Shown: positions 1-64,000 of the stretch, piece after piece
Position numbering within the stretch: position 1 is the stretch's first letter
Layout of the letters: each line of letters opens with the position of its first letter
NCBI GenBank assembly: GCA_038912545.1
Contig: JBCLFD010000002.1
Location: forward strand, 4,422-68,421
Origin: Minisyncoccia bacterium
GTDB taxonomy: Bacteria > Patescibacteriota > Minisyncoccia > Phycocordibacterales > Phycocordibacteraceae
Length of the DNA stretch: 64,000 nucleotides
Reading direction: 5' to 3'
Notes under the pieces: generated by a model
Told to the model about the DNA's origin: nothing
The model's input: only the letters and a program-made list of their open reading frames with translations
The model's database searches: none
Program-made: the position numbers and the translations under genes

Positions 1-588
1 CCTCTATTTCTTGTACTGCTACCGGAATAACTATCTGCGAAGGTAGGTCATAAATGGTGTGAATCGGTACCTGTACCTCTTCTTCTCTTTCTTCTTCATC
101 TGTTTCTATTTCTACTTCTTTTTCTAACTCTTCCTCGACGTCGGAAGCCCCGACATACTGCGTCGAAGTTAGCGTCTCACCTTGCCCTATACGACTAAAC
201 CACGTTTGCCAAGAGTCTTCTAAGTTTTGTGCCGGTTTTTCCGTCTCTGAGATCTGTTCCTGCTCCCTGTTTATCCGTAGACGATTTATCGACGGTAGAT
301 TCTCGCCATCGCTCGCCTCATATCTAGGAGATTCCCATGTTTTTGGCAATATTTCAGGCGTTTCTTCTACTTTTGGTTCTTCTTTGATTACATCTTTGAG
401 AGGGGTTGGAGCACCGAATCTATGGTCCTGAATAGCGCTCTCTAGTACATACCAGCCCCGTCCGACGAGTCGAGCAGGGACTCGTCCCTCTCTGCAGAGT
501 TGACCTACATAATCTTTTGCATACCCAGTAAGCTTCGCGGCGCGTTTAGACGATATGTAAACTTTCTCGCCAATGAGTATCTCATCCA
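1..588 (-). CDS. Partial CDS (3' end beyond window): N-terminal helix-turn-helix-like domain followed by an acidic low-complexity region. Hypothetical protein.
   Basis: Not in the ORF track because it runs off the window edge. Hand translation of the minus strand from the ATG at 586-588 gives MDEILIGEKVYISSKRAAKLTGYAKDYVGQLCREGRVPARLVGRGWYVLESAIQDHRF..., followed by an E/K-rich segment. The frame stays open to position 1. Confidence 0.55.
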
Positions 589-643
589 TAACAAGCATTA
601 TATGCCTATCTCGGCTCGTATGGAAGTGCTGTACACAAGCCCG

Positions 644-719
644 GTATGCAGTAGGCAGAAAGCAGTATGCGGTAGGCGGTATGCATTTCTCTGCCTTCTG
701 CTTACTGCTTACTGCTTAC
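644..719. repeat. Heptad-repeat hairpin element, copy A: 6 forward heptads (644-685), a TTTCTC loop, and 4 reverse heptads (692-719).
   Basis: Read directly: GTATGCA GTAGGCA GAAAGCA GTATGCG GTAGGCG GTATGCA tttctc TGCCTTC TGCTTAC TGCTTAC TGCTTAC. The arms are complementary at 21/28 positions by hand alignment. The gatB stop codon (702-704) lies inside the reverse arm. Confidence 0.85.
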
Positions 720-2108
720 TTTCTCGGTAATGAGTCTTCGAATTACCGCCGGGTTCCCTGCCCCTCCGCTCTCTCTCATTGCTTTGCCGATGAGATACTG
801 GAGTGCTGTTTGCTTCCCTGCACGATACTCGGCAACCACCTTTATCTCTCTTGCGAGTACGGTATCAATAACCGCACCGAGCGCATCCGTATCGTGAATC
901 TGGATGAGACCTTTTTCTTTAGCAATATTCTCTGGATCGCCACCTTCCCTGACGAGAATCGCGAGAATATCTTTCATGCCCCGAGAAGAAAGCTCTGCGC
1001 TCACGAACATACGGAGAAGTTTTGCGAATGCAGTGGGTGTAACATTTTTCTGTTCGCCGGCTAAATCAGAGACAAAATAATTTGCTGCGAGAAGTGTAAG
1101 CTCTTTCTTATTTCCAATTTCTCCCAACACTGCATCAAAAAATGCACTGCGCGGAATCGTCGCGATGATGAATTCTATATCGGGCTGTTTGAGTCCTCCG
1201 TGGGCATATCGTGCGCGTCGTTCCCACGGCAATTCGGGTAACGATGCTGTAATCGTCTCGAGAGAAAATTCCGGAATCTCGCCACAATATAACTTCGGCA
1301 AGTCCGGCTCCGGGAAGTAGCGGTAGTCGGCGCCCCCTTCCTTAAACCGCTGATGGAATGTCTCCTGCTTCGCTTCGTCCCACCCACGTGTCTCTTGTAC
1401 TACCTTCCCTCCCGAGTCAATAAGTTTGCTCTGGCGCTCTATCTCGTATGCAATAGCACGTTCAACCGACCTGAAGGAATTGAGGTTTTTCACCTCTACT
1501 TTCGTCCCCAACTGCTTACTGCCTACTGCATTCTGCTTACTGACACTTATATTCGCTTCAATACGCATCTCCCCTTTCTCGAGATTCGCTTCACCAGCAC
1601 CAAGCGTGCGCAGTAAGAGCTGGAGTTCGCGCGCAAAACGACCAGCCGTCTCCGCATCGGGAATAACCGGTTCGGTAACGAGTTCCATAAGTGGGATGCC
1701 GGCACGATTAAAATCAACAAGACTTTTATTATTTCCGTGCGTAGAGCGGGCGGTATCTTCTTCCAGATGCACGCGAGTGACGGCGATTCCGATGATCTCG
1801 CCGCCTTTAATGAGCGGGTTCTCATACTGACTGATTTGGTAGCCCTTCGGAATGTCAGGATAGAAATAACTCTTACGATCAAACTCAGAAAAATCGGCAA
1901 GCTTCCCTCCAATCGCCGTCCCTATGCGCAGGACGTGTCGTACCGCTTCGCGATTAATCACAGGCAGGGTGCCGGGGTGCGCGAGACAGACGGGGCACAC
2001 GTTCACATTCGATCGCGTCTCGTCCGGATTATTCGCCGAGTCGCAGAACATCTTGGTTCTAGTCTTGAGCTCCGCGTGGACCTCGAGACCGATGGTGGGG
2101 CGATACAT
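702..2108 (-). CDS. gatB: Asp-tRNA(Asn)/Glu-tRNA(Gln) amidotransferase subunit B
   Basis: ORF 702..2192 trimmed to the internal ATG at 2106-2108 (MYRPTIGLEVHAELKT, the canonical GatB N-terminus). Motifs: FDRKSYFYPDIPKGYQISQ, NRAGIPLMELVTEP, KNLNSFRSVERAIAYEIERQ. The 28 upstream codons are read-through of the heptad repeats. Confidence 0.95.
   Translation of the reverse strand: MYRPTIGLEVHAELKTRTKMFCDSANNPDETRSNVNVCPVCLAHPGTLPVINREAVRHVLRIGTAIGGKLADFSEFDRKSYFYPDIPKGYQISQYENPLIKGGEIIGIAVTRVHLEEDTARSTHGNNKSLVDFNRAGIPLMELVTEPVIPDAETAGRFARELQLLLRTLGAGEANLEKGEMRIEANISVSKQNAVGSKQLGTKVEVKNLNSFRSVERAIAYEIERQSKLIDSGGKVVQETRGWDEAKQETFHQRFKEGGADYRYFPEPDLPKLYCGEIPEFSLETITASLPELPWERRARYAHGGLKQPDIEFIIATIPRSAFFDAVLGEIGNKKELTLLAANYFVSDLAGEQKNVTPTAFAKLLRMFVSAELSSRGMKDILAILVREGGDPENIAKEKGLIQIHDTDALGAVIDTVLAREIKVVAEYRAGKQTALQYLIGKAMRESGGAGNPAVIRRLITEKVSSKQ
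1513..1540. repeat. Heptad repeat copy B: 4 reverse heptads lying in frame inside gatB.
   Basis: TGCTTAC TGCCTAC TGCATTC TGCTTAC. On the minus strand this encodes ...SKQNAVGSKQ... in the segment between the GatB NIS and GTKVEVKNLNSF blocks. Confidence 0.75.
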
Positions 2109-2109
2109 A

Positions 2110-2232
2110 GTAGGCAGTATGCGGTATGCAGTATGCAGAGGCAAGCCCAGATAGCCAAAAACAGTATGCAGTAGGCGGTATGCCGTATGCAATATGCATT
2201 TTTCTGCTTACTGCTTACTGCTTACTGCCAAC
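2110..2232. repeat. Heptad-repeat hairpin element, copy C: 4 forward heptads (2110-2137), a 26-nt spacer, 5 forward heptads (2164-2198), a TTTTTC loop, and 4 reverse heptads (2205-2232).
   Basis: GTAGGCA GTATGCG GTATGCA GTATGCA ... GTATGCA GTAGGCG GTATGCC GTATGCA ATATGCA tttttc TGCTTAC TGCTTAC TGCTTAC TGCCAAC. It fills the whole gatB-obg intergenic space, and the obg stop codon (2208-2210) lies in the reverse arm. Confidence 0.85.
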
Positions 2233-3191
2233 AGCTTTGAAAGTTCGTCGGAGAACTTTTTTAGGGCGACAGGGTCTTCTACGGAGACCGAGAACACTTC
2301 CCTACCCGTCTCACGCTCTAGAAGTTGGACTTTAGTTTCTTGTTCTTCTGGCAAAATCAGGTCTATTTTAGACAAGATAATCATTTCTCGCTTCTCGGAT
2401 AGTCCGTGTCCGAATGCTTCTATCTCTTTCCGTACCTCTGTATATGCCGAGAGAGGGTCATCTTGGTCAGCCGAGACGAGATGTAGCAGAATTCCAGTGC
2501 GTTCTACGTGCTTTAAAAATTTTATACCGAGCCCCTTACCGGTCGATGCTCCTTCTATGAGTCCTGGGATATCCGCGATGATGTGACCATAAAAGTCACC
2601 GAGATGCGGTTCAAGAGTGGTGAAGGCATACGCACCGACCTTTGACTTCGCCCTTGTAAGAGCGTTCAGAAGCGACGACTTCCCTGCATTCGGGAGTCCG
2701 ATGAATCCTGCATCGGCAATAATCTTTAGAGTGAGTTCTATATCCCCATCCTTACTTGGCTTCCCGTCGGTCTGTTGAAAAGGGTTCTGATTCGTTGAGC
2801 TCTTAAAGCGTGCATTACCTTTCCCGCCCGTACCGCCCCTAAAAACAATAATTTCTTCATCTTCTTTCGTAATCTCATATTCCTCACCGGTCTCTACAAT
2901 ACGTGCAACGGTGCCGACAGGAACTTTTAACATCATCGGTTTACCATTCTTGCCGTGTTGGAGTTCGCCACGACCCGCTTCACCCTCTTCGGCACGAAAC
3001 TTTTTTTCGTAGCGATACGTGGCGAGTGCGGCGAGATCACGCATCCCGAGCAGGATGACGTCCCCGCCTCTACCGCCGTCACCGCCCGAAGGACCACCCT
3101 TCGCCGTCTCCTTAGTGCGCAACCAGCGAATGACGCCATTACCGCCCTTGCCCGAGGCGGCATAAATCTTCACCTGATCAGTAAATGCCAT
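2208..3191 (-). CDS. obg: GTPase Obg/CgtA
   Basis: ORF 2208..3260 trimmed to the ATG at 3189-3191 (MAFTDQVKIYAASGKGGNGV). Motifs: GGDGGRGGDV, G1 GLPNAGKSSLL, DIPGLIEGAS, LSKIDL. Confidence 0.95.
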   Translation of the reverse strand: MAFTDQVKIYAASGKGGNGVIRWLRTKETAKGGPSGGDGGRGGDVILLGMRDLAALATYRYEKKFRAEEGEAGRGELQHGKNGKPMMLKVPVGTVARIVETGEEYEITKEDEEIIVFRGGTGGKGNARFKSSTNQNPFQQTDGKPSKDGDIELTLKIIADAGFIGLPNAGKSSLLNALTRAKSKVGAYAFTTLEPHLGDFYGHIIADIPGLIEGASTGKGLGIKFLKHVERTGILLHLVSADQDDPLSAYTEVRKEIEAFGHGLSEKREMIILSKIDLILPEEQETKVQLLERETGREVFSVSVEDPVALKKFSDELSKLLAVSSKQ

Positions 3192-3197
3192 GGAATA

Positions 3198-3254
3198 GTA
3201 AGCAGTATGCAGTAAGCGGTAGGCAATAGCAATCGGAACGGTAAACAGTAGGCG
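3198..3254. repeat. Heptad repeat copy D: forward arm only.
   Basis: GTAAGCA GTATGCA GTAAGCG GTAGGCA (3198-3225), then degenerate heptads ending with GTAGGCG at 3248-3254. It lies between the obg start and the stop of the four-helix-bundle gene. Confidence 0.8.
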
Positions 3255-3260
3255 ATACAA

Positions 3261-3623
3261 CTACAGTTTGTTCATGAGTGATTCGAGCATTCGTTGTAAT
3301 TGATTAAGTTCTTGTAACGCTTCAGTTGCATCAATATGATACTCGTTCTGCATTAGTAACAACTGTGTCTCGAGCTCCGCTGCCGAACCACTAGCAATTC
3401 TTAAAAACTGAAGAAAATCTTTCTTAGTCCCTCGTTTAGAACCCTCTGCAATGTTAGACGGTACAGAAACGGCACATCTCCGTACTTGGCTTGATAGTGC
3501 GAATAATTCTTCCTTGGGTAGTTGGCGTGCAAGTCGGTAGACGAGACTAACTAATGTCATTGCCTTTTGCCAAACGCGCATGTTTTGAAATGCGCTACCA
3601 GTTTGTGTTCGTATTTCCTGCAT
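3261..3623 (-). CDS. Four-helix-bundle protein of the 23S rRNA intervening-sequence protein / DGR Avd family
   Basis: The sequence ...SAFQNMRVWQKAMTLVSLVYRLARQLPKEELFALSSQVRRCAVSVPSNIAEGSKRGTKKDFLQFLRIASGSAAELETQLLL matches the family hallmarks as I remember them (F-x-x-L-x-VWQKA, Q-x-RRAA-S-x-x-x-NIAEG, FL-x-x-A-x-GS-x-x-E). The start was chosen at the ATG at 3621-3623, which lies inside a heptad. An alternative ATG is at 3581. Confidence 0.85.
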   Translation of the reverse strand: MQEIRTQTGSAFQNMRVWQKAMTLVSLVYRLARQLPKEELFALSSQVRRCAVSVPSNIAEGSKRGTKKDFLQFLRIASGSAAELETQLLLMQNEYHIDATEALQELNQLQRMLESLMNKL

Positions 3624-3646
3624 ACCGCCTACCGCATACCGCCTAC
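3619..3646. repeat. Heptad repeat copy E: reverse arm only, preceded by loop-like TTTCC.
   Basis: gtaTTTCC TGCATAC CGCCTAC CGCATAC CGCCTAC. It contains both the start codon of the four-helix-bundle gene (3621-3623) and the secA stop codon (3629-3631). Confidence 0.8.
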
Positions 3647-6172
3647 TTCGACAATGGTCCATCCTTCAGTGAGAAGTTGCTCCACTTTTTTATATTTAAG
3701 CGTACGCGATTCATCGCCCTTCTTAATAGTCACGATATCGTTCCGACCGTAGCTCACGCCTTTCTTGATTGGCGCGGGTGCACTGCCCTCTTCAGCTCCT
3801 GCGGTGACAAGTGCCGAGCGCACTTTTGCATTTTTTTGTTCTTGTTCAGCGCGAATACGCGCATCGTCGGCAGACGCGAGTCGGGGCAACATCTCCCGAA
3901 GCGTCGCTTGAATATTCGCTTCCAAGAGGCGAAAGCGCTGAAGTCCTTCGCGACGATACTCAATTAAGGGATCGCGTTGACCGTATGCGCGAAGCGACAC
4001 CGAGTGACGTAAATATTCCATTGTTTCCAAGTGCTCCAGCCAGAACATGTCCACGATCTGCAAGAGCATGTGGCGCATGTGCGCAACAAAAGTCGTGCCG
4101 AGCTCTGCCTTCTTTGCGTCGTACGCCGTGCGCTCTGCTTCGGCCTCGCCGAGCAGGGCGAGCATAATCCCTTCCACCTCTTCGTCAGAGCCGACGAGCG
4201 CGGCACGACGCCGTGCATACATCGCGAGCCGTTGAGTATTCATCACGTCGTCATACGCGAGAACCTGCTTGCGCGAGTCAAAGTTGAACCCTTCAATACG
4301 CGTTTGCGCCGTCTCGAGAGATTTGGTAATCATTGCGCTCTCAATCGGTTCGTCTTCGGGGATACCGAACTTGCCCATCACCTTCTTCAGCGCCTCAGAG
4401 GCGAAGACGCGCATAAGCTTGTCTTCAAGGGATACAAAAAATCTCGTCTCGCCGGGATCGCCCTGACGACCCGCACGACCGCGGAGTTGATTATCAATAC
4501 GCCTCGCGTCGTGACGCTCGGTGCCGATAACCGCGAGTCCGCCCCGCTCTATAACTGCCGAGCGTTCTTCAGCGGTGGCGAGCGCACCGCCGAGCTTGAT
4601 GTCCACACCTCGGCCAGCCAAGTTTGTCGCCACAGTGATACGGCCCTGCTTCCCCGCTTCTGCAATAATCTCGCCTTCGCGTTCGTGATTCTTTGCATTC
4701 AGAAGCTCGTGGGGGACACCCGCATCGCGCAAACAATTACTCACCACCTCGTTGTCCTCAATAGAGACGGTGCCGACCAAGACCGGCTGACCCTTTTCAT
4801 ATTTCTCTTTCACCGCGCGCGCGACGGCACGATACTTCCCAGCTGTTGTTTGGAAGATAAGGTCGTCGTGGTCCTTGCGCGCGACCGGCTTATTCGTCGG
4901 CACCGCAATCACTTCAAGACCGTAGACCGTATAAAATTCCTCTTCAGAGGAGAGAGCGGTACCCGTCATGCCCGAGAGACGCCCGTACATACGAAAAAGG
5001 TTTTGGAACGTGACGGAGGCGTAGGTGCGCGTCTCGGCCTTAATCGACACATGCTCCTTCGCCTCTACTGCCTGATGCAGACCATCCGACCAACGGCGAC
5101 CGGGCTGCATCCTCCCCGTGAATTCGTCAACGATGATAATCTCGCCGTCTTTTACGACATATTCTTTATCGTTATGAAAGAGCGCCTGCGCCTTCACGGC
5201 GGTCTCCAGGTGATGCGCATATTTCACACCGCCTTCGGTATAAATATTTTCCATACCGAGTGCTATCTCTGCCTTATGGATTCCCACTTCGGTAAGCTGA
5301 ATCGCGTGCTGTTTCTCATCAATCGTATAATCCTCACCTTCTTTCAAAGAGCGCACGATACCCGCAAATTGTTCATACAAGAGAGTGGCGTCGCCTGCGG
5401 GACCGCTAATGATAAGCGGAGTGCGTGCCTCGTCTATTAAAATAGAGTCCACTTCGTCAACGATGGCATACGAAAAACCTCGTTGCATTATCTGTGAAGA
5501 ATCGTAGGCGGTATTGTCGCGCAGATAATCAAAGCCGAGTTCATTGTTCGTCGCGTAGGTGACGTCCGTGGCATACGCTTCTTTCTTAGTGACGGGACGA
5601 AGATAATCGTAAAATACGCGGAACGAACCTTCAGTATCGCGCAATGCGTCCTCTTCCTTCTCTACGTGTGCGGAGTCGTAGCAGTACGCGCCGACAGAGG
5701 TCACGACGCCGACCGTGAGTCCGAGAAAATCATACACTTGTCCCATCCACGCGCCGTCGCGCCGCGCGAGGTAATCGTTCACGGTTACTATTTGCACTCC
5801 CGTACCCGCGAGCGCGTGATAGGTCGCGGGCAATGTCGCCACGAGAGTCTTGCCTTCGCCGGTGCGCATCTCGGCGATTTTCCCCTTCGCGAGCGCGAGA
5901 CCGCCGATGAGCTGGACGTCAAAATGAGATTGCTGGAGTGTGCGCTTCGCCGCTTCGCGCACAAGCGCGAATACGAGCGGAATATCCGTTTCTGGTGCGC
6001 CACCGGCGACGCGCGCTCGCGCGCGTACTTCAGTAAAGCGCGTTCTGATTGCCTCATCAGGAAGCCCCTTCAGCTCCTCGGTGAAGATATTGGTCGCCAC
6101 GACCACCGGCGCCGCTTGCTTAATAAAGCCAGCAGATTGATTCTTCGTGAAAAGGCGATCCAGTCCGAACAT
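3629..6172 (-). CDS. secA: Preprotein translocase ATPase SecA
   Basis: ORF 3629..6199 trimmed to the ATG at 6170-6172 (MFGLDRLFTKNQ). Motifs: MRTGEGKTLVATLP, DEVDSILIDEARTPLIISG, TNLAGRGVDIKLGG, GRAGRQGDPG. Confidence 0.97.
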   Translation of the reverse strand: MFGLDRLFTKNQSAGFIKQAAPVVVATNIFTEELKGLPDEAIRTRFTEVRARARVAGGAPETDIPLVFALVREAAKRTLQQSHFDVQLIGGLALAKGKIAEMRTGEGKTLVATLPATYHALAGTGVQIVTVNDYLARRDGAWMGQVYDFLGLTVGVVTSVGAYCYDSAHVEKEEDALRDTEGSFRVFYDYLRPVTKKEAYATDVTYATNNELGFDYLRDNTAYDSSQIMQRGFSYAIVDEVDSILIDEARTPLIISGPAGDATLLYEQFAGIVRSLKEGEDYTIDEKQHAIQLTEVGIHKAEIALGMENIYTEGGVKYAHHLETAVKAQALFHNDKEYVVKDGEIIIVDEFTGRMQPGRRWSDGLHQAVEAKEHVSIKAETRTYASVTFQNLFRMYGRLSGMTGTALSSEEEFYTVYGLEVIAVPTNKPVARKDHDDLIFQTTAGKYRAVARAVKEKYEKGQPVLVGTVSIEDNEVVSNCLRDAGVPHELLNAKNHEREGEIIAEAGKQGRITVATNLAGRGVDIKLGGALATAEERSAVIERGGLAVIGTERHDARRIDNQLRGRAGRQGDPGETRFFVSLEDKLMRVFASEALKKVMGKFGIPEDEPIESAMITKSLETAQTRIEGFNFDSRKQVLAYDDVMNTQRLAMYARRRAALVGSDEEVEGIMLALLGEAEAERTAYDAKKAELGTTFVAHMRHMLLQIVDMFWLEHLETMEYLRHSVSLRAYGQRDPLIEYRREGLQRFRLLEANIQATLREMLPRLASADDARIRAEQEQKNAKVRSALVTAGAEEGSAPAPIKKGVSYGRNDIVTIKKGDESRTLKYKKVEQLLTEGWTIVEVGGMR

Positions 6173-6204
6173 TATTTGTATTATACCATTTGGACACAAA
6201 AACA

Positions 6205-6243
6205 GCTCAAAACAAAAATGTCCCGCTAAGAGCGGGACATTTT
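6205..6243 (-). terminator. Rho-independent terminator candidate
   Basis: Perfect inverted repeat aaaatgtcccgct / agcgggacatttt (6215-6227 / 6231-6243, loop aag). On the minus strand the stem is followed by a TTTTTGTTTT tract. It sits between the small basic ORF and the secA start. Confidence 0.7.
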
Positions 6244-6255
6244 GACGAGACTTGA

Positions 6256-6321
6256 TTAGCGGCGGCGCTTTGCTGCCTTTCGCTTCGTTGTCTTCTTTGC
6301 AGCCTTTCTTTTTTTTGCCAT
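6256..6321 (-). CDS. Possible 21-codon highly basic peptide (MAKKRKAAKKTTKRKAAKRRR)
   Basis: Hand translation from the ATG at 6319-6321 to the TAA at 6256-6258, immediately followed by the strong terminator. No clear Shine-Dalgarno sequence. Too short for homology-free confidence. Confidence 0.3.
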   Translation of the reverse strand: MAKKRKAAKKTTKRKAAKRRR

Positions 6322-6420
6322 GGTTGTGTGCGAATTAAAATTATTAGTAGGTCGACCCTGCGTGTATTATCGCGCGTGTAGAAAATATTTGTGAGATTTT
6401 TTTTCAAACTGTGGATAAGT

Positions 6421-6450
6421 ATTAAAATGTTTTTGAAAATTATTTTTCAA
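6421..6450 (-). promoter_or_regulatory. Sigma70-like promoter candidate (TTGAAA - 18 nt - TTTAAT)
   Basis: Minus-strand reading of 6450->6421 gives TTGAAAaataattttcaaaaacatTTTAAT, in the AT-rich gap after the murB stop. Pattern match only. Confidence 0.25.
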
Positions 6451-7453
6451 TGTCGCCGAATGTTTCTACTTCTCTTTCAATCGTAATTCCGGTCGCGTCC
6501 TGCACGCGCCGCGCGACGTCGTGCGCGAGCGCATCAACATCAGAAGCAGTCGCACCCTTTTGCGCGACGATGACGAGCGGGTGCTTTTCATACAGTCGCG
6601 CTCCGCCGACACGAAGTCCCTTGAGCGACAGCGCGTGATCAAGAATCCAGGCGAGCGATATTTTTGTTGTGTCGTCACCTTGTGGAAACATTGGCAATTC
6701 TGGAAATCTGCGTGCGAGTTCATCGGCTTTTGTTTTTGATACGACTGGATTTTTAAAGAAAGAGCCCGCCGTTCCCGTCTCTCCGTCACTCGGGAACTTA
6801 TTCGCACGAATAACACGGACTGCGTGTGCCACCTCTCTCGGCGTCGCGAGTGCTACTCCCGCTTCGCGCGCCTTAACGAGATCGGGGTATGAAATATTCA
6901 GCGCGCCCTGCGCATTCAACATAAGCGCAACGCGCGTGATAATAAAATCTTTTTTCTCTTTGAAGACGCTTGTGCGGTATCCGAACTCCGCCTGTTCGCG
7001 TGAAAAGCGAATTGGTTCACTCGTTACGCGATTAATCGCGTCAACATATTCAACAGTTGGCGCGAGCTCGGCGCCGTAGGCGCCGATATTCTGCACCACC
7101 GCACCGCCCACCGAGCCGGGAATGCCCGCAAGATTTTCAATGCCGTACAAATTGTGTGCAGTCGTCGCATCAACCACGTCGTCCCATCGCGCTTCCGCAC
7201 CCGCTATCAAACGTGGACATCCCATGGACACGCTTGTGATGGCGACTTTGAGCACGACACCCGCGATGCCTTCGTCTGGTACGAGTATATTGCTCCCTGA
7301 ACCGAGTATAAAAAGTTCCAAATTTTTCGCGCGCGCAAACTCAAGCGCTTCGCGAATGTCGTCGTCGTTTTTCGCTTCAATAAAATACCGCGCGGGACCG
7401 CCGATGCGGAATGTCGTGAATGGAGCGAGCGCGACATCCTCGCGAACGATCAT
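6440..7453 (-). CDS. murB: UDP-N-acetylenolpyruvoylglucosamine reductase
   Basis: 337 aa. MIVREDVALAPFTTFRIGGPARYF, LGSGSNILV, and the FAD-binding/MurB C-terminal pattern GYRTSVFK ... GSFFKNP. Confidence 0.93.
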   Translation of the reverse strand: MIVREDVALAPFTTFRIGGPARYFIEAKNDDDIREALEFARAKNLELFILGSGSNILVPDEGIAGVVLKVAITSVSMGCPRLIAGAEARWDDVVDATTAHNLYGIENLAGIPGSVGGAVVQNIGAYGAELAPTVEYVDAINRVTSEPIRFSREQAEFGYRTSVFKEKKDFIITRVALMLNAQGALNISYPDLVKAREAGVALATPREVAHAVRVIRANKFPSDGETGTAGSFFKNPVVSKTKADELARRFPELPMFPQGDDTTKISLAWILDHALSLKGLRVGGARLYEKHPLVIVAQKGATASDVDALAHDVARRVQDATGITIEREVETFGDIEK

Positions 7454-63037: not shown

Positions 63038-64000
63038 CTACCTATCGCCTTTCAGCACATTTTTTAATGTTTCTTCGGATACTTCGTACGGAATTTTTCC
63101 GACACGCGGCGGCTCTACCGCCGGACTCGGTATTGGCATTTCCTGCCTACCGCCTACTGCCTTCTGCATACTTCTCTCAAGCACGTCCGCGAGCGCGCTC
63201 TTCAACGATTCGTCTTTCTGCTTCTCCTTTTGCTCGCGCTCGGCGCCCGTCTTTTGCGTCATATTCCGCAGAATGGTTTTGAGCTCCTCGTGGCTCTTGC
63301 CTGGTGCAATCGGGCGAATCATTGGCTTGGGAGGTAACTGGCGAAAAATGGGTTTCTCTATTTTCGGCTCTGGGCGCTTGGGTATGTACATCGCCTTCTT
63401 ATTCGCGCGCGCGTCGGCGGGTAGGGGCGCGGCAGTACTCTCGGCGAGCTCTTTCAAAATTGTTTCTTCAACTCCCGCGCGAGGTGCCGTGAATTGCTCT
63501 CTTGATGCAGCAATGATTTGTTCTCGATACGACACCTTTGGCGCCTCTATCGGCGGGAGCGTCACCGCCGAGAAGGGCGCCGAACCGACACCGTCTATCA
63601 TGAGCGATAAATACACCTGCCGTTTATCCAGCGTGACCAAATCTTCTTTGGTAAACTTCGGCATAAAAATAGTTTCTAGCAGTTCGGCATCAAGAGGCCC
63701 CACACGAAAAGAGACCGTTGTACCTACGTTGCCGAAGACCGCATCGCGCACCTCCTCTTCCATCTGTTCAATGTACTGGTGCGTGATGATGAGATTCAAT
63801 TTATATTTGCGTGACTCGGAGAGAATCTCGGCGAACGTCTCATTCGCGAAGTTTTGGAACTCGTCAACGTAGAAGTAGAAGTTCGGTTTCTTCGCTAATT
63901 CTGCCGCAGAGAGATTGGCACGACTCATCGCACCGAGGAAGATGCGCGTGGTGAGCATGCTCCCGAGAAGCCGCATATTGGTCTCGCCGACAAGCCCTTT
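63038..64000 (-). CDS. VirD4/TraG-like (type IV coupling protein / DUF87-like) ATPase, 3' portion; the 5' end is beyond the window
   Basis: FYFYVDEFQNFA (Walker B-like DE), SESRKYKLNLIITHQYIEQ. The frame remains open from 63976 to 64000 (KGLVGETN upstream of the track Met). Confidence 0.55.
   Translation of the reverse strand, partial: KGLVGETNMRLLGSMLTTRIFLGAMSRANLSAAELAKKPNFYFYVDEFQNFANETFAEILSESRKYKLNLIITHQYIEQMEEEVRDAVFGNVGTTVSFRVGPLDAELLETIFMPKFTKEDLVTLDKRQVYLSLMIDGVGSAPFSAVTLPPIEAPKVSYREQIIAASREQFTAPRAGVEETILKELAESTAAPLPADARANKKAMYIPKRPEPKIEKPIFRQLPPKPMIRPIAPGKSHEELKTILRNMTQKTGAEREQKEKQKDESLKSALADVLERSMQKAVGGRQEMPIPSPAVEPPRVGKIPYEVSEETLKNVLKGDR
63144..63171. repeat. Heptad repeat copy F: 4 reverse heptads plus a loop remnant, in frame inside the ATPase C-terminal tail
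   Basis: ggcaTTTCC TGCCTAC CGCCTAC TGCCTTC TGCATAC. It encodes ...SMQKAVGGRQEM... on the minus strand. Confidence 0.75.

Follow-up and report, generated by a model that had tools for sequence, protein, structure and literature searches.

In a 64,000-nt stretch of contig JBCLFD010000002.1 (assembly GCA_038912545.1) from a Minisyncoccia bacterium, referred to here as the window, a small four-helix-bundle gene lies between secA and obg and is enclosed by two inverted arrays of heptanucleotide repeats. We consider it probable that the gene and its arms together form a selfish, laterally mobile cassette of the intervening sequence (IVS) type, with an mRNA operon and not ribosomal RNA (rRNA) as its landing site. 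IVS elements have been regarded for 35 years as a curiosity of rRNA genes; that of the Leptospira 23S rRNA also encodes the four-helix-bundle protein S23p, and bacterial RNase III, which cleaves double-stranded RNA (dsRNA) stems of about two helical turns, excises such insertions from rRNA. An earlier note on this DNA, made from the sequence alone, had proposed an IVS-like cassette of stem plus open reading frame (ORF) inserted between protein-coding genes. That proposal is largely supported by the predicted fold, by empty orthologous sites, by the exchange of the unit between genomes, by the anatomy of the Coxiella IVS and by the setting of the gene family in other phyla.

Anatomy of the cassette at the secA-obg junction

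The first 6 kb of the window carry murB, secA, the small ORF, obg and gatB in this order, all on the minus strand. The parts of the cassette and its two host genes are as follows, with the arms named in the sense direction.

3619..3647, minus strand: 5′ arm, four heptads AGTAGGC GGTATGC GGTAGGC GGTATGC A, holding the secA stop and the ORF start
3261..3623, minus strand: ORF of the S23p/IVP four-helix-bundle family, 120 aa plus stop, 363 nt including the stop
3226..3260, minus strand: degenerate heptads between the ORF stop and the 3′ arm, TTGTAT CGCCTAC TGTTTAC CGTTCCG ATTGCTA
3197..3225, minus strand: 3′ arm, TGCCTAC CGCTTAC TGCATAC TGCTTAC T
3193..3643, minus strand: laterally exchanged unit, a block of 95.8% identity to locus L002 between flanking secA and obg DNA of 66-71% identity
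3629..6199, minus strand: secA, the upstream host gene, whose last five codons (VGGMR) and stop come from the 5′ arm
2208..3191, minus strand: obg, the downstream host gene, whose stop TAA (2210-2208) lies within hairpin C, described below

A repeat search recovered the arms as an inverted repeat of 29 nt (3197-3225 and 3619-3647) that is 83% complementary with a spacing of 393 nt, and both arms were found to be tandem arrays of period 7. The cassette as a whole measures ∼450 bp (about 3193-3647), with heptads of the form RGTAKGC in the 5′ array and the complementary GCMTACY in the 3′ array. The secA stop TAG (3631-3629) and the ORF start ATG (3623-3621) both fall within the 5′ arm with 5 nt between them, and a gap of 5 nt separates the end of the 3′ arm from the obg start codon (3191-3189). 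The inverted heptad arms, the 363-nt ORF between them and the TTTCC beside the reverse arm had all been described in the earlier note and are present, with the correction that each arm is one base longer than the 3198-3225 and 3619-3646 given there.

The arms amount to a single hairpin split around the ORF, and a complete hairpin is found at neither of the ORF's own two junctions, which argues against an ordinary gene in an operon with hairpin-bearing junctions. No direct repeat is visible outside the arms, where the sequence reads GTCGAA on one side and ATTCC ATG on the other; repeat arrays can mask a short target-site duplication. As for rRNA, no Rfam family reached the gathering threshold anywhere in the window.

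The start codons called for homologues of the ORF differ, giving 133 aa in L001 (1751-2152), 106 aa in L002 (10001-10321) and 121 aa in L003 (1728-2093). The family alignment and the arm structure favor the start codon in the last heptad, which would give a protein of 120-121 aa. The element is thus of relevance to annotation, in that one ORF has received three start calls in three genomes and the arms alter the C-termini of the adjoining essential genes.

The arms are predicted to form a long-range stem

In the sense (minus-strand) RNA, 24 of the 29 arm positions form Watson-Crick pairs, four form G-U pairs and one is a mismatch, in agreement with the 23 pairs in 28 and four wobbles that had been counted by hand. 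The arm duplex has an energy of −46.8 kcal/mol as sense RNA and −31.0 kcal/mol as antisense RNA. When the 476-nt sense RNA of 3185-3660(-) was folded, the long-range stem appeared in both the minimum free energy (MFE) and the centroid structure (z = −3.6), with pair probabilities of 0.9-1.0 that were unchanged after the addition of 300-nt flanks, so that the stem prevails over local structures. The MFE structures of the five homologous cassettes all contain it too, at times shifted by one heptad (a register shift of 7 in L002). Based on these folds, a dsRNA stem of 29 positions is predicted for the arms in a co-transcribed secA-ORF-obg RNA.

An ungapped pairing score, the helix score, was used for comparisons between positions and loci. 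The two arms score 62, compared with 21.9 ± 3.6 (maximum 39) for controls of the same spacing across the window. The helix score took over from RNA.duplexfold on 115-nt flanks, which was too noisy as a family-wide measure and gave the window a z of only −1.45 despite a perfect run of 25 bp.

The ORF encodes a member of the S23p family

The assignment of the ORF to the four-helix-bundle family was confirmed by a match to PF05635 (23S_rRNA_IVP/S23p) with E = 3.2e-35 and 121 bits against a cutoff of 33.8, covering profile positions 2-105 of 106. The family labels that apply are PF05635 and TIGR02436, “four helix bundle protein.” A homology search returned 6581 homologues of the ORF protein. A separate search of phage records gave no homologue at E ≤ 1e-5. 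No exact match to the ORF was found in the assembly index for either the 120-aa or the 133-aa version, and its relatives were found by homology search. The nearest relative of solved structure by phmmer is XCC0516 of Xanthomonas (PDB 2gsc chain A, E = 3.2e-19), a four-helix-bundle pentamer (PMC4990558). The match to PF22296 (bAvd) is weak, at 22.6 bits under a Pfam cutoff of 40.

Arms and ORF are gained and exchanged as a unit

To place the cassette among orthologous junctions, a metagenome scan with Obg as the query was used, which yielded 80 loci. In ∼20 relatives, with Obg proteins 69-82% identical to that of the window, the secA stop is 7-18 nt from the obg start and neither heptads nor ORF are present (e.g., GAAATCATAAACAAAAACTAATATG). 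The ORF occupies the secA-obg junction in six genomes only, namely the window, L001, L002, L003, L085, and L114. Arms accompany it in every readable carrier (L001, L002, L003, and L114), while L085 is cut at its 5′ end. As judged from these junctions, the comparison shows arms and ORF coming and going together. The end of secA points the same way, as relatives close with ...EGWEIVEQ* and the window with ...EGWTIVE-VGGMR*, the tail and stop being read from the arm. On this alignment, the insertion clipped secA and took the place of the native 7-18-nt spacer.

Evidence for exchange comes from L002. The SecA, Obg, and GatB proteins of L002 and the window are 75-79% identical, while the ORF proteins are 98% identical. 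DNA identity is 95.8% over the cassette and 97.2% over the ORF (synonymous divergence, dS, 0.08), compared with 66% for the adjoining secA and 71% for the adjoining obg, and the switch in identity is located at the outer ends of the arms. This pattern shows that genomes which have diverged elsewhere recently exchanged the cassette, and the arms mark the breakpoints.

The comparison with L003 bears on selection. Between the two ORFs, synonymous sites are saturated (proportion of synonymous differences, pS, 0.84) and the nonsynonymous proportion is low (pN 0.12), which indicates that the protein has been maintained by purifying selection. The arms are 87-92% identical to those of L003 despite this synonymous saturation, and the alignment thus shows a conservation of the arms that lies far above the neutral expectation. 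Heptad copy number varies, with two extra units (14 nt) in the 3′ array of L001 and one fewer in the 5′ arm of L002.

The secA-obg junction is also an insertion hotspot in relatives, most others having the 7-18-nt spacer only. Genes resembling Y1_Tnp (IS200/RAYT-like, where RAYT denotes a tyrosine transposase associated with repetitive extragenic palindromic, or REP, sequences) lie between secA and obg in L086, L097, L106, L129, and L134, flanked by GGACACG..CGTGTCC hairpins. A 138-aa TrpR-like (Trp_repressor-like) gene on the opposite strand occupies the junction in L094, L103, L111, and L117, and a ParD/HigB-like toxin-antitoxin pair in L116. The RAYT-like gene of L097 lies between heptad-like inverted arms (5060-5085 and 5945-5980), and the types of such arms in relatives include AGCACGA AATTTGA / TTCGAAT TTCGTGC TTCGTGC and AATTTTC / GAAAATT. 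ORF-less hairpins of heptad-like arms are found in the obg-gatB gap of L111 and in both gaps of L127. With such arms around a RAYT-like gene in L097 and without any ORF in L111 and L127, heptad arms in this clade are not specific to a single cargo.

Inverted heptad arms accompany the gene family in many phyla

The survey of the family covered 80 loci (L004-L083) with homologues 40-58% identical to the ORF protein, from species-representative genomes of many phyla, of which 71 were analyzable. For each, the best helix between the 100 nt that precede the start and the 100 nt that follow the stop was compared with controls of the same spacing from the same locus. The flanking helix beats every control of its own locus in 50 of the 71 loci. 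Among these 50, the arm period is 7 in 43-44 and 8 in 5-6, and the heptads vary by lineage (TGGTTAG, AGTGGTT, GTGACRR, AGCCTTA, GGTAGTG, and others). The family genes have a median flanking-helix score of 41, and the median of 352 other genes in these loci is 21 (Mann-Whitney p = 2e-26), and scores of at least 35 are reached by 63% of family genes and by 3.7% of the other genes. None of the 14 loci with the strongest stems contains rRNA.

The genes are co-oriented with both neighbors in 38 loci and opposed to both in one, and this strong bias toward the sense orientation implies that the context of transcription or translation matters. The gaps to the neighboring genes are ∼45-58 nt and are filled by the arms. 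At ∼37 of 49 loci, the stop codon of the upstream gene is between −15 and +20 nt from where the 5′ array starts, and 18 loci have this stop codon inside the array. Stop triplets are commoner in the first arm than in the second (25 loci versus 8, p = 0.005). Whichever strand is read, the arm encountered first is G-rich and C-poor in 48 of the 50 cassettes; this bias belongs to the palindrome itself, being the same from both strands, and so provides no evidence for the sense strand. We also observed that the cassette palindromes have a fixed polarity, G/T/A-rich on entering and C-rich on leaving, which their stop-codon content explains in part. The stability of the stem across the family shows no clear strand preference.

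The survey suggests that the arm-gene-arm layout between co-oriented genes is the usual setting of the PF05635 family in many phyla. More broadly, these sequence comparisons provide good evidence that an IVS-type cassette in an mRNA operon is the common state of the family. In the literature we found no published link of PF05635 genes outside rRNA to inverted heptad arms, which is not proof of novelty.

Two plasmid loci of Nostoc bear on short tandemly repeated repetitive (STRR) sequences. On Nostoc edaphicum plasmid pNe_5 (L165), an antisense four-helix-bundle gene is inserted between nrdB and nrdA, with STRR-like arrays at 1400-1460 and 1860-1895 that read (GTAGGGA)n upstream and (TCCCTAC)n downstream. 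The four-helix-bundle gene on pCC7120alpha of Nostoc PCC 7120 (L164, 1860-1910) is likewise flanked by these STRR-like heptads. Through these loci, the cyanobacterial STRR repeats may be connected to PF05635 cassettes.

ORF-less hairpins and other heptad arrays in the window

Three further heptad features lie at the neighboring junctions of the operon.

643..720, minus strand: hairpin A, after gatB, ORF-less with a 6-nt loop; the gatB stop TAA (704-702) is in its 5′ arm
2163..2228, minus strand: hairpin C, at the obg-gatB junction, ORF-less with a 6-nt loop; the obg stop is in its 5′ arm
2109..2138, minus strand: array B, a second array of the 3′-arm type, immediately before the gatB start codon (2108)

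Hairpins A and C are as they had been described, 6-nt loops included, and their heptads belong to the same family as those of the cassette. Hairpins and cassette have in common the loop-proximal motif GCAG-(A)GAAAT; what comes after it is GCATAC in the hairpins, whereas in the cassette it is the ORF. When 2095-2240 is folded, the MFE structure pairs the 5′ arm of hairpin C with array B (−49.6 kcal/mol) and not with its adjacent arm, which implies two alternative stems at the obg-gatB junction. No T-run follows the heptad hairpins, and none of them is among the terminator-like sites in 400-6500, so they are not intrinsic terminators.

Both hairpins fold better on the antisense strand. The emphasis of the earlier note on G-U wobbles in the sense transcript therefore fares differently at different places; it stands for the cassette stem, with its energies of −46.8 versus −31.0 kcal/mol, and fails as a general rule, given hairpins A and C and the lack of a preference across the family. 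We dropped the G-U asymmetry as proof of a role for the sense RNA.

The suggestion that the ORF-less hairpins are empty sites did not hold up. The true empty junctions have no arms, so the hairpins are separate insertions. Several relatives have obg-gatB gaps of 19-26 nt, and compared with these hairpin C is an insertion in its own right. It is distributed independently of the cassette, as it is absent in the cassette-bearing L003 and a heptad hairpin is present at obg-gatB in the cassette-less L112. It is plausible that hairpins A and C are ORF-less or non-autonomous derivatives of the cassette. Extra arrays of a cassette's own heptad within ±5 kb were found in only four of 43 other loci, so the clustering of heptad arrays in the window is local and not general.

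In L088, L100, and L135, which lack hairpin C, the native end of obg is AAGCAGTAAGC or AAGCAGTAAAC, equal to one (GCAGTAA)n unit of the array in the 5′ arm of hairpin C (window 2204-2228). The array of hairpin C may have grown from this target sequence or may have been inserted by microhomology to it. An in-frame array of the same heptad family inside gatB (1511-1542) encodes SKQNAVGSKQ in a variable GatB loop that is 4 residues longer than in L003 and L089. Another in-frame array of this family (63143-63172), in a minus-strand ORF at 63038-63976, encodes SMQKAVGGRQEM and is followed by the loop-like motif GGAAATGC.

Proposed mechanism and alternative explanations

Our current model is that the unit consists of the 5′ heptad array, the 120-aa S23p/IVP ORF and the complementary 3′ array, and that it was inserted at the very end of secA. 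The 5′ arm hands a stop codon to the clipped secA and a start codon to the ORF. By analogy with rRNA IVSs, RNase III would cut the stem, thereby excising the insert and separating the secA and obg messages, and such excision could explain how the cell tolerates an insertion between two genes that are essential and tightly coupled. Ribosomes ending secA would melt the 5′ arm and could initiate in a coupled manner at the ORF start 5 nt downstream. The ORF product would be an Avd-like nucleic-acid binder that serves the element and not the host, and hairpins A and C would be related, separately inserted derivatives of the cassette heptads. Since the period of 7 is not a multiple of 3, the arrays would place stop triplets in successive frames and permit insertion at a gene end independent of frame. 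This protection is imperfect; the 5′ arm in the window has stops in two frames out of three, and the secA called in L002 runs through the 5′ arm and ends beyond it, 29 nt past the ORF start codon. Movement could proceed by recombination within the arms or by an enzyme acting in trans.

Several points weigh against this model. We infer RNase III cleavage, co-transcription and translational coupling of the cassette, and a search for an RNase III signature that covered the 64 kb alone gave no match. The ORF is the sole PF05635 gene within the window, and its protein has no recognizable catalytic domain, which bears on how the unit moves. The case of L002 could perhaps represent replacement of an allele by recombination in pre-existing arms and not a fresh insertion. 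Finally, the case that wobbles make for a sense-RNA stem does not extend beyond the cassette, as hairpins A and C are more stable in antisense and the family has no clear preference, and without a general preference for the sense strand a role of the arms at the level of DNA is possible.

Such a DNA-level role is the most substantial alternative, although we consider it unlikely as the whole explanation. Here the arms would serve a non-autonomous element either as its terminal inverted repeats or as hairpin or cruciform sites of recombination, and the element would be moved by a transposase or recombinase encoded elsewhere (e.g., Y1/RAYT acting on single-stranded DNA hairpins, as for REPINs, the hairpin-forming REP elements), and the RNA stem would be a by-product. 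It would account for the strand data just mentioned, for shifts in heptad number by slippage and for exchange breakpoints at the arms, and relatives do carry Y1_Tnp genes with hairpins at secA-obg, in L097 between heptad-like arms. Yet the 64 kb yielded no homologue of Y1 or another transposase, the cassette ends show no visible target-site duplication, and a purely DNA-level element does not need the sense bias within operons (38 versus 1). The precedent of the rRNA IVS is moreover an RNA stem cut by RNase III. Roles of the arms in DNA and in RNA are not mutually exclusive.

It is improbable that the heptad arrays are native gene-boundary repeats, resembling STRR or REP-type mosaic elements (REP/BIME), with one type after gene ends and its complement before gene starts, so that the gene merely sits between them and there is no cassette. 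Three junctions in a row in this operon do carry arrays of one family, which is found within coding sequence as well, and Geobacter metallireducens has ORF-less paired inverted arrays of heptads or octads at its junctions (PMC2700814). Against such an origin, relatives without the ORF have no arrays at secA-obg, the ORF has one split hairpin and not a complete one per junction, the block of identity with L002 consists of arms plus ORF and ends at the arms, and inverted heptad arms surround the family in unrelated phyla with different heptads each time. Most improbable, in our judgment, is that the stem is a domesticated host regulatory device, either a terminator or attenuator or a means of translational coupling or occlusion that controls obg, with the ORF as a bystander. 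The stem does bury the ORF start, contain the secA stop and end 5 nt before the obg start, and its arms are highly conserved, but the heptad hairpins lack the T-run of a terminator, most relatives express secA and obg from a 7-18-nt spacer without such a structure, and the ORF is under purifying selection and is exchanged along with the arms. We therefore retain the mobile IVS-type cassette as the favored explanation.

A wider generalization is offered tentatively, as somewhat more apt to fail than to hold. PF05635 genes in general would be the cargo of widespread selfish cassettes with inverted tandem-heptad ends, sense-oriented at the stop/start junctions of operons across phyla. The 23S IVSs would be a special case, the 7-nt period would provide stops in all frames, and orphan arrays and hairpins (STRR, Geobacter, A, and C) would be ORF-less derivatives.

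The complete anatomy of an IVS, with long stem, heptamers, and S23p ORF, occurs here as a putative mobile unit inside an essential mRNA operon, a view backed by presence and absence at orthologous sites and by dated lateral exchange. The survey suggests that life in an operon cassette is the norm for this protein family, whose members number in the thousands. The findings also provide testable ideas on the role of the arms (RNase III excision, all-frame stop codons, slippage-tolerant pairing), on why the insertions are tolerated and on the origin of unexplained intergenic heptanucleotide repeats in several phyla.

Comparison with known systems

The closest known counterpart is the 23S IVS of Coxiella burnetii, which lies in helix 45, measures 428-444 nt and carries an S23p ORF in the loop of a 28-bp terminal stem (PMC4990558). 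Two to three tandem heptamers (GACAGAT), their number depending on the strain, directly precede the S23p start codon, and RNase III cuts at the start of the first heptamer repeat (PMC4990558). The element is sporadic and laterally transferred, and its ORF has been reported as decaying and probably untranslated (PMC4990558). The window cassette has the same build, with a PF05635 ORF in the loop of a ∼28-29-bp terminal-repeat stem, a length of ∼430-450 nt and heptamers of variable copy number that abut the ORF start, and it too is sporadic and laterally exchanged. Unlike the Coxiella IVS, it sits between secA and obg and not in 23S rRNA, its arm overlaps coding sequence and supplies a stop and a start codon, and its ORF is under purifying selection and not decaying. 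Cleavage by RNase III is known for the Coxiella IVS, whereas the window cassette shows only a substrate-like stem. IVSs of 23S rRNA are located in helix 25 or 45 and have terminal stems of ∼20-30 bp. As the cassette lies outside rRNA, it would be IVS-like in its working, yet it is not a 23S rRNA IVS.

Similarities to REP/REPIN-RAYT systems are the hairpin-forming repeats at operon junctions, the gene flanked by inverted copies and the ORF-less copies nearby. The cassette protein differs from RAYT in being a four-helix bundle without an HUH/Y1 motif, and the arms are heptad arrays and not a single REP palindrome. A phmmer search with two RAYT-like proteins of relatives against six-frame ORFs found no RAYT or Y1 protein in the 64 kb. 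The fold also recalls Avd, the accessory protein of diversity-generating retroelements, which belongs to a four-helix-bundle fold family related to the ORF; the ORF differs from Avd in its sub-threshold match to PF22296 and in its neighbors, which are secA, obg, gatB, and murB.

Tandem arrays of 7 nt, and sometimes 8 nt, at gene junctions have been described in Geobacter, as cyanobacterial STRR and as the TAACTGA repeats of Beggiatoaceae (PMC2700814; PMC4679880). In Geobacter metallireducens, inverted pairs of heptad or octad arrays ∼100 nt apart lie between co-directional genes without an ORF and were read as regulator-binding (“global regulator”) sites (PMC2700814); these pairs resemble hairpins A and C. 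The Geobacter, STRR and Beggiatoaceae reports treat such arrays as protein-binding or regulatory sites and make no tie to PF05635 genes or to IVSs.

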